Virus record (IMG/VR): IMGVR_UViG_3300031867_000031
Coordinates: 1-64,000 of that record
Direction: 5' to 3' (one strand)
Source: a virus
Lineage: Duplodnaviria > Caudoviricetes
Length of the DNA: 64,000 nt
This document shows positions 40,486 through 58,079 of the stretch, one piece after another. Every line of letters starts with the position of its first letter. Position 1 is the first letter of the stretch. The position numbers were made by a program, and so were the translations under genes. Below the pieces are notes generated by a model, which saw nothing but the letters and a program-made list of their open reading frames with translations, was not told the DNA's origin and did no database searches.

Positions 40486-40857
40486 ATGTCGTATGATAGA
40501 GATGGTGATATTTTTAAGCTTCATAATATAGGAGTCTCGGATATGAAACTTTCAGAGTTTTACAAATTGTCTAAACAACGAATTCGTCAAATTATTTTTG
40601 AGCAACGTCGTAGACATAGAAAAGGCAACCCTGATATTCCACAAATTGATACCATGTGCAGAATTCTTGGTTGGAGAGAAAATGAGAGAGGAAAACTTCA
40701 ATCGATTTTGCACAAGAATGGATACACTTCGTATGATGATAAATGGCGAGATTTATCCTCGGATGATATTTTAGCCATACCTTTGTTGGGGCCGTCTGCT
40801 GTGTGCATTATTTGGCTTGCTCAAAACATGGATGACGAAACGGATTCGACTAAATAG
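40486..40857 (+). CDS. sigma4-like HTH plus alphaCTD-like HhH protein
   Basis: YKLSKQRIRQII HTH; LSSDDILAIPLLGPSAV HhH. Confidence 0.6.
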   Translation: MSYDRDGDIFKLHNIGVSDMKLSEFYKLSKQRIRQIIFEQRRRHRKGNPDIPQIDTMCRILGWRENERGKLQSILHKNGYTSYDDKWRDLSSDDILAIPLLGPSAVCIIWLAQNMDDETDSTK

Positions 40858-40868
40858 GATTTGGATAT

Positions 40869-41057
40869 TTGATGATACTTTTAGTTATTAGCATTTTGGT
40901 ATCTATAACGATAGATGCTTCGCTTAAAGTAATTAGTTTTATGAGTATGTATTCGAGATATATGAGTTCTGCATATTTGAAATTTATTAGAGCGCAAATT
41001 GCTATTAGCATAATCGAGCTATTTAGTATTGCGTTGTTGATAGTTCGGTTGGGTTAG
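40869..41057 (+). CDS. Small membrane protein
   Basis: Two hydrophobic segments. Confidence 0.45.
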   Translation: MMILLVISILVSITIDASLKVISFMSMYSRYMSSAYLKFIRAQIAISIIELFSIALLIVRLG

Positions 41058-41071
41058 GAGGGTAAAAGATT

Positions 41072-41699
41072 ATGGAGTATCTTCCGACTTTTATTGATCA
41101 ATTAGATGTAGATTATATTTCACATCATGGAATTAAAGGAATGCATTGGGGGTATAAGAAGGTATCAGAATGCTGATGGTTCTTTGACACCTGCTGGAAG
41201 AAAACGGTATGACGAAACAACAAAGCTTATGCGACGTGCTGATTCTTATGAATCTGCTGCTAAACATTTAAATTCGCAAATACATCCTAACAAAAGTAGG
41301 ATAGAACGCGCTAGAATAATGACTCAAGCTGTAAAAGCACAACAAAAAGCGGATCGTATACGCTCAAGATTAGACCCCGATATTGTTTCTAAAATTGAAC
41401 AGGATAGAAAAATTGAATTGAAGAAAAAGCAAGCGGCAAAAGAAAAAGAATGGCATAATAGTCCATCTAGCAGAAGATATCGTTTTATGGATGACGCAAT
41501 GCATGAAGTATTTGGAGCAAATACCAAAAGTGATTATAGGAATCTATATAGAGAAATGAGTAAGGACAAACGTTTTAAAAATTTATTAGATTCTGAAGAT
41601 AATGATGATTACAAAGAAGCAGAAGCGGCTTGGCTTAAAAAGCATGGGTATTGGGAATCATATTTAGATGCTATACATAATGGTTATAAAGACATATAA
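41072..41699 (+). pseudogene. HHG-motif cargo protein 8, frameshifted in a G5 run
   Basis: MEYLPTFIDQLDVDYISHHGIKGMHWG then extra G in 41148-41152; GIRRYQNADGSLTPAG continues in another frame. Confidence 0.75.
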
Positions 41700-41729
41700 T
41701 CTCATATAGGATGATTGGTTAGTATATCT

Positions 41730-41772
41730 GGGGCTGGATGTCGTAAGATTTCCAGCTCCTTATATTTTTTTT
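41730..41772 (+). terminator. Intrinsic terminator
   Basis: GGGCTGGA...TCCAGCTC hairpin then T-tract. Confidence 0.65.
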
Positions 41773-41833
41773 GCCTACCTCGCTAAAAAAACTTTCCTAA
41801 AATAAGAGAAAGTTCTATAAAGGAGGTAAAGAA

Positions 41834-42058
41834 ATGAGTGAAATAAAATTTAGCGATAGAATGATATTTGCAACAAAGCATTTGATCAAGAGCATAGAGT
41901 TGTCGGTAGATAATTCTGTAGCATCTATAAAATCGATTGGTATGTTATCAAGAGGTAATATGGAGCAATGGAGTTATTCTCGAAGCTCTATGAAGACTAG
42001 AAAAGCTGCTAAGAATGTACATATTAAAATCGCTAAAGCAGCGATGGTTGTAAAATAG
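41834..42058 (+). CDS. Hypothetical cassette protein
   Basis: Promoter 41780, AGGAGG RBS. Confidence 0.7.
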   Translation: MSEIKFSDRMIFATKHLIKSIELSVDNSVASIKSIGMLSRGNMEQWSYSRSSMKTRKAAKNVHIKIAKAAMVVK

Positions 42059-42199
42059 AACTTTTTAGAGAAGTCGATGTATAGAAAGTTTATGCATGGA
42101 CTTTCTCTTTTTTTGTTATATTTACCTTTTGTAAAAATTTTTGTCTCGTTAAATTTACCTTTTGTATTATAAGAAGGGCGCTAGAAGGAGCGATGAAAA

Positions 42200-42355
42200 A
42201 TGAAGTGCGAAATTTGTAAGAAGAACAATGGACGGAAGTATAAAAGTGAAGTGTTTGATACGATTTGTCTTTGTGACAAATGTGTTAAACAACTTGGCGG
42301 AAAGAAAAAGGCCATTGAGGCTTATGAAATTGGGAATGTAGTTTTTGTTAAGTAG
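42200..42355 (+). CDS. Small zinc-finger protein (51 aa, not in track)
   Basis: MKCEICKK...CLCDKC; promoter 42146; GAAGGAG RBS. Confidence 0.7.
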   Translation: MKCEICKKNNGRKYKSEVFDTICLCDKCVKQLGGKKKAIEAYEIGNVVFVK

Positions 42356-42446
42356 TATTTAACCAGCGCCCTTCTTTTTACCATTGATTATATTTTTTCG
42401 CATTTTTAACTTTTATTTATATAGGATTCTATGAAAGGAGATAAAA

Positions 42447-42698
42447 GTGTATTTGACATCTTTTGAACAAATGTTATTGCAAGATCACATACAAGTTTAT
42501 AAGAATCGACGCGAAGCATTGTTAATAGATCTTAATATTTATAAGATGGATGTTAGCTTTATGCGAGATGCAATAAAGCGTAATGATTATAAAAGATATA
42601 AGGTTTGGAAAAAATTCGTATACAGATCATATAAACGAGTAAAAGTAACAGCACTACAAGTGTTGAAATACATGTTTGTTTATGCAAGATTGATTTAG
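42447..42698 (+). CDS. Hypothetical cassette protein
   Basis: Promoter 42398, GAAAGGAG RBS, GTG start. Confidence 0.7.
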   Translation: MYLTSFEQMLLQDHIQVYKNRREALLIDLNIYKMDVSFMRDAIKRNDYKRYKVWKKFVYRSYKRVKVTALQVLKYMFVYARLI

Positions 42699-42769
42699 AA
42701 TTCTATATAGACGCCGCTTTTACAGGGCGTTTATATTTTTGTCTCGCTATAATAACCATTCATATAATG

Positions 42770-56454: not shown

Positions 56455-56461
56455 ATAATTT

Positions 56462-56537
56462 GCGCCCTTAGCTCAGTTGGCAGAGCAGGGGACTTTTAAT
56501 CCCAAGGTCATGGGTTCGAGACCCATAGGGCGCACCA
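56462..56537 (+). tRNA. tRNA-Lys(UUU)
   Basis: Full cloverleaf, anticodon TTT, encoded CCA. Confidence 0.95.
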
Positions 56538-56550
56538 TTTATATTTTTAT

Positions 56551-56642
56551 GGAGCCGAATAAGTATGTAGTTGGTAGTCGAATGACTTTAAACTGAAGCC
56601 AACTGTAGGAAAAGGCATGGCTAGATAGGGCGGGGATCTGGT
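56551..56642 (+). ncRNA. Paralogous structured RNA element (GGCGGGG loop)
   Basis: Shares GGAGCCG, AGTATG, GTTGG/CCAAC, GCATGG and TAGAT..GGGGATCT with 56124 element. Confidence 0.55.
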
Positions 56643-56675
56643 TTATATTTCAAGCTCGAGAGAAAGCGAGAGGTA

Positions 56676-56945
56676 ATGAAAGTTGTAATCAATGATTGTT
56701 TCGGCGGTTTTTCTATTAATCATGAAATCGCTAAACAATATTTTAATGGCGAATGGTATGAAATAAAACGAACCGATCCTACTCTAATCTCTTTGATAGA
56801 GTCGGGTATAGACTGCAACGGTTCAAGTGCAGAATTGAAAGTAGTAGAAATTCCTGAGAATGCTACTGATTGGCGTATGATTGAATACGATGGAGCAGAG
56901 TACATCATATATGTAGTCGACGGTAAAATGCATTCTATTTATTAA
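56676..56945 (+). CDS. Conserved phage hypothetical protein
   Basis: MKVVINDCFGGFSI...RTDPTL...LKVVEIP...EYDG. Confidence 0.8.
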   Translation: MKVVINDCFGGFSINHEIAKQYFNGEWYEIKRTDPTLISLIESGIDCNGSSAELKVVEIPENATDWRMIEYDGAEYIIYVVDGKMHSIY

Positions 56946-56955
56946 TGATGTTTAC

Positions 56956-57121
56956 GGGAGACATTTATTGTCACAATGCCTAAAGTTGTAGGGAGTTCTG
57001 GTGGGGTTAGGCATTTGAATATTTATGGGTGAGTTCCCGCCATTGGAAGCGTTCTAGAGTAGGCTTCTAATGGATAGGTGTTAGTGCAACTCGGACTAGT
57101 AGCGGGGATGGGTCTACTAGT
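56956..57121 (+). ncRNA. Two tandem structured elements with G-rich loops
   Basis: ATGCCTAA..TGGTGGGG-TTAGGCAT; CCATTGGAAGC/GCTTCTAATGG; ACTAGTAG-CGGGGATGGGT-CTACTAGT. Confidence 0.5.
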
Positions 57122-57132
57122 GAATTATATTT

Positions 57133-57216
57133 GCCCTCGTGGCGGAATGGCAGACGCAGCGGACTTAAAATCCGATGTCGAAAGACGTGTGGGTTCGAAT
57201 CCCACCGGGGGCACCA
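57133..57216 (+). tRNA. tRNA-Leu(UAA)
   Basis: Class II cloverleaf with variable arm, anticodon TAA, CCA. Confidence 0.95.
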
Positions 57217-57250
57217 TTTATATTTTTAACTCTTCATAGAAAGTAACAAA

Positions 57251-57493
57251 ATGATTACTATAAACATTAGCCGTGATGATGCAATTTATCTGCAGGCAAT
57301 TTTGCAAAGTGATAAGAACGAATATTGTGATGGTATTATAAGCCTTGAAGAAATTATGCAAACAGATCCTGATAGACTACTTGGTAAAAGAAAGCAAACG
57401 CCAAGCGAGGCCATTGAGACTACTCAAAAAGCCGTCGGTGTTTTAGACCGAGTACTTGATCAATTGGCGCAAAATATTCAAACTAAGGAATAA
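57251..57493 (+). CDS. Hypothetical protein
   Basis: AGAAAG RBS. Confidence 0.65.
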   Translation: MITINISRDDAIYLQAILQSDKNEYCDGIISLEEIMQTDPDRLLGKRKQTPSEAIETTQKAVGVLDRVLDQLAQNIQTKE

Positions 57494-57659
57494 AATGTTT
57501 ATTTTTAATCGAGGGATAGAACCATGAACGATCCTGACGATTTTACTTTTTTAGAAAAAGTATTAATGATACTTAGTTATATTCTCGTATTCGCGTTAAT
57601 TTTTAAAACGTCTGGATAAGCAATGAATAATACAACAGCTCTAAAGAAAGCGAAACAGC

Positions 57660-58079
57660 ATGAGTAATGAAAAACGAAATCAAGAAATTTTTAATCTTAA
57701 AGAAAGTGGCATGTCATATTCGCAAATAGGATCCAAATTTAATCTTTCTAAAGAACGAATTCGTCAAATTTATTTAAAAGAACAGCGTCATATAGAATCC
57801 GAAGAACTTCATGTCAAAGCAGTAAATGGCACTATCGTGTATACTTTTTGGGATGCGTTAATAGATGTTTGTGAAACTAAATCGCAAGCTGTACGAATTC
57901 ACAATTGTCTTAATCGGGCTGGCATCATTCATGAAATAGAAGTTGGAAGTGGTTCTTTGGATTCGTATTCTGATGAATTGCTGCTATCTATTCGAAATTT
58001 TGGAGTGCTATCATTGATATTTTCAAGAAGAGCGTATAAGAAATTCGTGGAAAAGAGACAAGCTAATGTCAATTCATAA
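57660..58079 (+). CDS. sigma4-like HTH plus RNA polymerase alphaCTD-like protein
   Basis: GMSYSQIGSKFNLSKERIRQI; VRIHNCLNRAGI...YSDELLLSIRNFGVLSL. Confidence 0.75.
   Translation: MSNEKRNQEIFNLKESGMSYSQIGSKFNLSKERIRQIYLKEQRHIESEELHVKAVNGTIVYTFWDALIDVCETKSQAVRIHNCLNRAGIIHEIEVGSGSLDSYSDELLLSIRNFGVLSLIFSRRAYKKFVEKRQANVNS

Follow-up and report, generated by a model that had tools for sequence, protein, structure and literature searches.

Phage paralogues joining a sigma-region-4.2-like helix-turn-helix to an alphaCTD-like domain are candidate two-headed DNA-binding regulators

We analysed a window of 64,000 nucleotides, bases 1-64000 of an 82,331-base virus record (IMG/VR IMGVR_UViG_3300031867_000031, rated 99% complete), and describe four related proteins, A to D, encoded between positions 40486 and 58079. 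Three of them (A, B and D) fuse a helix-turn-helix (HTH) like that of sigma-70 region 4.2 to a real alphaCTD-like domain, i.e., a domain with two helix-hairpin-helix motifs, (HhH)2, of the type found at the C terminus of the alpha subunit of RNA polymerase (RNAP). The fourth, C, has the alphaCTD-like part and another domain in place of the HTH. We tentatively propose a role for A, B and D as regulators that are made early in infection and bind DNA sequence-specifically with two heads.

Four paralogues and their modules

The four genes are the following (nt, nucleotides):

40486..40857, + strand: paralogue A, 123 residues; sigma4-like HTH at about residues 1-45 (nt 40486-40620), degenerate alphaCTD-like domain at about 57-115 (nt 40654-40830)
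46713..47084, + strand: paralogue B, 123 residues; sigma4-like HTH at residues 1-46 (nt 46713-46850), alphaCTD-like domain at about 58-120 (nt 46884-47072)
48990..49475, + strand: paralogue C, 161 residues; alphaCTD-like domain at residues 8-82 (nt 49011-49235), C-terminal alpha/beta domain at 85-161 (nt 49242-49472)
57660..58079, + strand: paralogue D, 139 residues; sigma4-like HTH at residues 1-57 (nt 57660-57830), alphaCTD-like domain at 61-131 (nt 57840-58052)

An earlier, sequence-only reading of this DNA had listed these four open reading frames, quoted peptides of the one at 57660 and called the four products paralogous. The translations agree with the frames and the peptides, and the paralogy is borne out by pairwise BLASTP, with E values of 6e-10 for A-B (A residues 5-120), 4e-9 for B-D and 1e-7 for C-D (C residues 8-82 against D 62-132). 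When D was used as a query against the whole 82-kb genome, exactly A to D were found (E values from 2.9e-5 to 3.6e-4). With similarity well above chance, the four predicted proteins are, at the level of sequence, true paralogues. A, B and D have in common an N-terminal HTH of the form R(N/D)xxI...S..RIRQI, previously pointed out for the genes at 46713 and 40486, and a C-terminal conserved glycine hairpin.

The N-terminal module of A, B and D is supported as a sigma-70-region-4.2-like HTH by profile, PDB-sequence and fold evidence. D matched the Pfam model Sigma70_r4 with 22.5 bits in the protein scan (cut-off 24.1) and, now above the cut-off, with 24.2 bits in that of the genome; sub-threshold matches were obtained for B (Sigma70_r4 and Mor) and for A (Mor and HTH models), and 12 of 14 family members matched PF04545 at E <= 0.01 (alignment A3). 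The AF2 model of D has a pLDDT of 93.2, and its HTH (residues 1-57) resembles sigma region 4 domains with Z of 7-8.5, among them sigmaA region 4 on -35 DNA (1ku7, Z 7.8); several ECF sigma4 domains fit at a root-mean-square deviation (rmsd) of 1-2.5 A. The helix preceding region 4.1 is missing from this HTH. In the numbering of E. coli rpoD, against which the positions were checked, the equivalents of R586, I587, R588, Q589 and I590 do not vary among A, B and D (the RIRQI recognition helix of A aligns with them) and that of R554 is retained. The equivalents of R584/E585 read KE in D, KQ in A and IP in B. No match to sigma region 2 (PF04542) was found in the 82-kb genome at E <= 10, although the same model had matches in 11 of 14 control genomes; the paralogues are hence not parts of a split sigma factor.

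The evidence on the second module is of the same kinds. The Pfam model RNA_pol_A_CTD (PF03118) gave 21.0 bits with D and 19.8 bits with B (E 6.5e-4) against a cut-off of 23.8, and no match with A or C; NCBIfam rpoA models matched residues 72-116 of B. Within the wider family, 13 of the 14 members of alignment A3 matched PF03118 at E <= 0.01 (best 8e-6), and the distant relatives P0134 and P0060, which carry a precomputed PF03118 annotation too, matched an rpoA model at 2.8e-8 and 2.2e-7. A phmmer search of PDB with D gave ten matches, all to alphaCTD or primary-sigma region 4, and a profile of 21 homologues retrieved the B. subtilis alphaCTD best (1z3e_B, E 0.0028), followed by a run of alpha subunits. 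Against a genuine RpoA of 315 residues from a Bacillota metagenome-assembled genome (MAG), D reached a BLASTP E value of 5e-5 with 37% identity over both HhH motifs; the alignment covers RpoA residues 259-296 only. With 123-161 residues, A to D have no counterpart of the N-terminal domain of alpha (alphaNTD).

Foldseek searches with the whole models returned nothing at E <= 0.001, and matches at the level of domains were recovered with VIA-align only. Residues 61-131 of D matched the alpha chains 9dvt_A (Z 6.5, rmsd 2.2 A, 57 of 62 positions aligned, 35% identity), 5tw1_T (Z 5.9, 53 of 53, 36%) and E. coli 8igr_G (Z 5.6, 29%). Z values of 6-8 are commonplace for small helical domains, and the assignment to alphaCTD is secure because coverage of the full domain is combined with about one third (29-36%) of identical residues. 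In the numbering of E. coli MG1655 rpoA, D has the equivalents of R265 (R79), N268 (N82), C269 (C83), N294 (N113), G296 (G115) and S299 (S118), and L117 in the place of K298. It thus keeps five of the six residues of the 265 determinant (R265, N268, C269, G296, K298, S299), and the rpoA alignment upholds the earlier statement that R265, N268, N294 and G296 are retained and K298 lost in the gene at 57660. B keeps the equivalents of R265, N268 and G296. Fewer are kept by A and C: A has that of G296, with those of R265, N268 and K298 altered. Taken together, profile, PDB-sequence and fold evidence support the assignment of both modules made in the sequence-only reading.

C had been described there as alphaCTD-like only. 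It indeed has no HTH and starts straight at the alphaCTD-like part, but some 75 further residues follow at its C terminus and form a domain that the description missed. The AF2 model of C has pLDDT of 78-90 in the N-terminal domain and 45-63 in the C-terminal one. The best of 48,161 chains for the model was an alphaCTD (5vi8_T; Z 5.4, rmsd 2.0, 52 of 53 positions aligned), tied with SAM and Rad51 HhH domains, and the alphaCTD ancestry of C therefore rests on its paralogy to D. The C-terminal domain, modelled with low confidence, gave weak and scattered matches (Z about 4; BamC N-domain, KA1 and an Acr). A match of the C-family profile to the TALE-like BurrH at 1.3e-7 was rejected as spurious, being the sum of 12 individually insignificant repeats.

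The nearest related contig, of 89.8 kb and binned in a 'Bacillota bacterium' rumen MAG, represents a sister phage in which B (44% identity), C (30%) and D (55%) have orthologues. The C orthologue there has 210 residues with an extra N-terminal part, and some relatives of the C type do bear an HTH (P0139, P0144, P0150), which suggests that the C of our window has most likely lost its HTH.

The family extends well beyond these two phages. A profile search, run exhaustively, returned 3,121 proteins at E <= 0.001; the best 150 of these include more than 60 full-length two-domain proteins of 117-260 residues, each standing for one 50%-identity cluster of metagenomic sequences. None of the members has a meaningful name, and automatic annotation has already tagged both Pfam domains on some of the relatives. 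They are found in phage accessory regions; gut and rumen viromes are rich in them, and single genomes carry several. When 50,697 phage records were searched by tblastn with D, P0060 and P0134, the matches were HTH-only or alphaCTD-only, with no member in a cultured phage; H96, the one match that we inspected, is a bacterial rpoA on an 'unverified' scaffold.

Among 68 family representatives, the best conserved sigma70 equivalents are R554 (66), R586 (64) and Q589 (57); that of R588 (42) varies in part, and those of R584 and E585 vary (31 and 32). On the alpha side, R265 is represented by R or K in 63 of the 68, G296 in 67 and L270 in 63; K298 has a K or R equivalent in 26. The acidic 261 determinant, by which alphaCTD contacts sigma4, is not conserved among them. 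The first alphaCTD-like helix has a family consensus of the Gram-positive alpha type, in which the equivalent of B. subtilis alpha Y263, a residue that we take from 1Z3E to have a role in Spx binding, is aromatic in 48 of the 68. That the DNA-contact residues are the best conserved and the base-specifying positions vary points to diversifying site-specific regulators rather than to a protein locked on an invariant element or partner of the host.

Some relatives of 200-1,500 residues (P0040, P0042, P0047, P0053 and others) carry 3-17 tandem copies of a related HTH and resemble the CRISPR-repeat binder Cbp1 (a match to NCBIfam HTH_Cbp1); such arrays and this likeness fit a DNA-reading unit. Acb2/Tad1-like anti-CBASS hairpin genes were seen near two family members, at L013:16738-16944 in the sister phage, about 6 kb from the D orthologue, and at L025:2330-2539, directly downstream of P0060. 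These neighbours fit an accessory or counter-defence neighbourhood.

TCGY promoters, the phage polymerase and the genomic setting

The intergenic regions from 39.8 to 48 kb carry a recurrent promoter motif composed of a T-run, TCGY, WAC 6 nt on, a TATAAT-like hexamer another 6-7 nt further (at a distance of 19 nt from the T of TCGY) and AGG. The strict pattern occurs 18 times on the + strand and 0 times on the - strand (0 and 2 in the reversed control). Sixteen of these sites lie in the window, at 42146-51745, and the other two at G000 66816 and 67203 in the rest of the genome; the structural region, at 1-39 kb, has none. Two promoter-like sites bear on the paralogues:

45595..45619, + strand: TCGY-type promoter, a pattern match, at the head of the unit containing B
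40444..40471, + strand: sigma70-type promoter-like site, a consensus match only, with a perfect -35 hexamer, a 16-nt spacer and four of six positions of the -10; it lies 15 nt upstream of A, with an A-tract before it

The genome also encodes, beyond the window, a protein of 920 residues (G000 78356-81118, L012:14356-17118) that matches PHROG 4291 ('RNA-dependent RNA polymerase') end to end with 1167 bits, has a DFDGD loop and carries HTH modules at either end. Identities of 37-51% link it to the product of the last large gene of about 250 phages of Actinobacteria and Bacillota, which include phages of Arthrobacter, Gordonia, Streptomyces, Microbacterium, Lactococcus (1706) and Faecalibacterium. 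A putative YonO/crAss-like polymerase has already been described in this group of phages (bioRxiv 10.1101/842583; see also PMC2919709). The record of Lactococcus phage 1706 labels the homologue a structural protein, which suggests that the polymerase is delivered with the virion. As a side observation, the N terminus of the 920-residue protein is a variant of a short segment (PHROG 32444/38171) that is common to the N termini of the products of 41127-41699, 39124-39849, 1866-3461, 34113-35111 and 36030-37091.

We found the TCGY motif to be strand-specific in Arthrobacter phage Mudcat (4 forward, 0 reverse, 0 in the control), in Microbacterium phage Count (5, 0 and 0) and in the sister contig. 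Searching the complete records of FP_oengus, 1706, Mudcat and Count and the partial one of contig89 with the family profile turned up no sigma4-alphaCTD protein, and a search for the phage RNAP in three further contigs with weak family matches, two of which are fragments, found none. Because the motif travels with the polymerase across phyla in phages with no detected family protein, the TCGY promoters most likely belong to the YonO-like RNAP of the phage and not to the paralogues. The unit of B starts at such a promoter and has no terminator-like site between it and 48243, so that B is probably an early product of the phage polymerase.

Paralogue A is the exception among these expression contexts. 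It follows a terminator-like hairpin (40264-40305) and the best sigma70-type match of the region, the site at 40444-40471, which is the top site of a scan of 38.8-49.2 kb that is, overall, not above chance. The hexamer of this site, 36 nt upstream of A, is the sole intergenic TTGACA among the 24 forward-strand copies in the 82-kb genome, where the hexamer is neither enriched nor depleted (24 observed against 25.6 expected). The site could be a host-type promoter or operator. In the related contigs, no recurrent TTGACA-type site was found upstream of the paralogues.

The source is a phage of the ruminant gut, and all genes assigned in its genome are on the + strand. Near-identical DNA is present in bovine and sheep gut metagenomes (public runs); no RNA run was among the runs listed, and a search for near-identical DNA in a collection of cultured phages gave no match. 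The window contains genes for a terminase, a portal and a protease-capsid set, ThyX, six tRNAs and numerous small genes. ARAGORN places five ordinary tRNAs at 56.4-59.2 kb and a tRNA-like gene with an undetermined anticodon ('cc') at 39010-39080, just before the early region. Another small HTH protein, of 99 residues (60391-60690), matches several HTH families, including Sigma70_r4_2, with the best stretches at residues 54-98; its recognition helix is unrelated to those of A, B and D. At the right end of the genome (G000 81100-82200, L012:17100-18200), a GGTCATATTT-type motif is present in about 11 copies, along with three repeats of roughly 100 bp, and a shorter form of the motif, TTATATTT, is found 3' of terminators and tRNAs within the window.

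Proposed role and competing explanations

In the role that we tentatively favour for A, B and D, the N-terminal HTH, of three helices and derived from primary-sigma region 4.2, would read a short element in the major groove, and the C-terminal (HhH)2, derived from an alphaCTD of the Gram-positive type, would grip the minor groove or backbone next to it, in the manner of alphaCTD on UP elements. The R584/E585 equivalents differ between the paralogues (KE, KQ and IP), which is why we think that they probably bind different sites and would thus serve different sets of genes or different stages. C would be a derivative that lost its HTH and gained another domain. The binding of DNA, the two-headed mode, the targets and the sense of the effect (activation, repression, or the occlusion of sigmaA-type promoters) are inferred. 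The conservation of B, C and D in the sister phage and the TCGY-driven unit of B support this role.

Several points weigh against it. All matches of the window proteins themselves to Pfam in the protein scan are under the gathering scores, and the commonness of Z values such as those of D has been mentioned. The DNA-contact residues are degenerate in A and C. The equivalent of K298 is absent from all four window proteins and that of N268 is present in only 35 of the 68 relatives, so that minor-groove binding of the UP type is not guaranteed. No binding site was found, and no motif recurs upstream of the paralogues in the phage or its relatives. Finally, the evidence points to no particular polymerase as the one affected, if any is.

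The same two modules could serve to take over the host. A phage with its own RNAP might use single-chain sigma4/alphaCTD mimics to occupy DNA of the UP or -35 type at strong host promoters, or to soak up the regulators that dock on alphaCTD or sigma4. We consider this doubtful; if true, no earlier example is known in which a phage has copied alphaCTD as a weapon. A version akin to the second proposal of the sequence-only reading (a decoy for host activators or UP elements), in which the proteins act as decoys or hijackers, the alphaCTD-like part titrating host regulators (e.g., of the Spx type in Bacillota) and the sigma4-like part perhaps titrating partners of sigmaA region 4, with the host RNAP crippled or redirected as a result, seems unlikely to us. 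The Gram-positive consensus of helix 1, with its frequently aromatic Y263 equivalent, would suit it, as would the best PDB sequence match, to the alphaCTD chain from the complex with Spx. A phage that brings its own RNAP could also afford to disable the host enzyme. However, what is most conserved are the DNA-contact residues (the R265 and G296 equivalents) and not the acidic 261 determinant, and the specificity positions of the recognition helix vary among orthologues, which is unexpected if the HTH were solely a protein-binding decoy. In sigma factors, the helix preceding region 4.1 helps form the groove for the beta-flap, and this is the helix that the HTH lacks. The related Bacillota MAG encodes one ArsC-family protein, of 117 residues, and no clear Spx.

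The remaining explanations concern the phage polymerase, its promoters or other kinds of DNA transactions. That the paralogues are accessory factors of the YonO-like RNAP, switching it for instance from the early TCGY promoters to those of replication or structural genes, is improbable in our view. Paralogues and polymerase share a genome, the HTH modules of the polymerase are of broadly the same class, and transcription of the 1-39 kb region, devoid of TCGY promoters, needs another signal; yet the profile found no member of the family in five polymerase-bearing phages (FP_oengus, 1706, Mudcat, contig89 and Count), and the family is therefore not a general partner of the polymerase. A role in DNA handling outside transcription, as a small-terminase-like, partition, recombination-directionality or architectural protein, appears more improbable still. 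The HTH of D does match the N-terminal HTHs of the G20c and P74-26 small terminases (Z 7.2-7.8), and (HhH)2 domains are common in repair proteins, but the best matches at the level of sequence are to primary sigma region 4 and alphaCTD only, A to D lie in the early/accessory region and not by the terminase, and a 159-residue open reading frame directly 5' of terL (3468-3947) is a positional candidate for the small terminase. We regard as least probable the proposal of the sequence-only reading that the proteins are single-chain sigma4/alphaCTD adaptors which recognise the TCGY promoters and bring the host RNAP to them. It had in its favour a sigma4-like HTH and a TCGY box in a -35-like place, about 19 nt upstream of a TATAAT-like hexamer. 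It fares badly against the motif being strand-specific in the sister contig and in Mudcat and Count, phages of high-GC Actinobacteria that share the YonO-like RNAP and in which no family member was found. Moreover, B itself lies behind a predicted TCGY promoter, and no sigma region 2 was detected in the 82-kb genome.

Comparison with known systems

Each module of A, B and D has a counterpart in bacterial RNAP. Like the bacterial alphaCTD (PF03118), the phage proteins have a fold with two HhH motifs and 29-36% structure-based identity, and D has the equivalents of R265, N268, C269, L270, N294, G296 and S299. Unlike it, they have no alphaNTD tether, a single long helix takes the place of the last helix and tail, the window proteins have lost K298, conservation does not extend to the 261 determinant, and the fusion partner of the domain is an HTH (in C, another domain). 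The HTH shares its fold with region 4.2 of primary (group 1) sigma factors (PF04545), with identical residues at R586-I590 and a kept R554; the differences are the missing helix before 4.1 and the varying equivalents of R584/E585. The genome has no sigma region 2 or 3 and the proteins are too short, and the absence of these regions means that the paralogues are not sigma factors.

Phages are known to modify alphaCTD (the ADP-ribosylation by T4) and to bind or replace sigma region 4. Among their small HTH proteins, the Mor and C activators of Mu (PF08765), like PHROG 532 and 836 ('late transcriptional activator'), resemble the paralogues by weak matches confined to the HTH: the Mor matches cover profile positions 56-101 of 107 with 12.5-18.9 bits against a cut-off of 24.9, and Mu C in its complex with RNAP matches the HTH of D with Z 5.8. 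The paralogues differ in having no Mor dimerisation domain, and Mor and C in having no alphaCTD-like domain. The single-HTH 'minimal sigma' proteins of jumbo phages and T4 gp33 are a precedent for isolated sigma4-like modules with which phages act on transcription (Iyer et al. 2021, PMC7824862); they differ in docking on the beta-flap and in having no alphaCTD-like domain. Appropriation of the MotA/AsiA type, in which a -30 box in place of the -35 element is bound by an activator that its promoter class requires, differs in another respect, since the box at about -30 (TCGY) is conserved in phages with no detected family member, and the proteins are therefore probably not needed to read it. This motif, conserved from phages of Bacillota to those of Actinobacteria that have a YonO-like polymerase, makes the promoter specificity of the polymerase directly testable.

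We found no report in the literature of a phage-encoded alphaCTD homologue, of PF03118 in phages or of a sigma4-alphaCTD fusion. Phage sigma4-like proteins are thus already known, and it is the alphaCTD-like second module that is distinctive, in an architecture that is visible in databases and unstudied. A likeness to the whole protein is the complex of alphaCTD, sigma4 and (UP + -35) DNA (PDB 3N97), in which the same two modules lie side by side on promoter DNA and whose chain 3n97_A matches the HTH of D (Foldseek probability 0.98; VIA Z 7.2, model residues 2-48). There, two holoenzyme subunits supply the modules; here, one chain of 120-140 residues unites them. If the proposed role holds, the family would be a compact natural two-headed DNA reader made from parts of RNA polymerase, and its targets, once worked out, would reveal the way in which a phage equipped with a two-barrel RNAP of its own, probably carried in the virion, handles the transcription machinery of its host.

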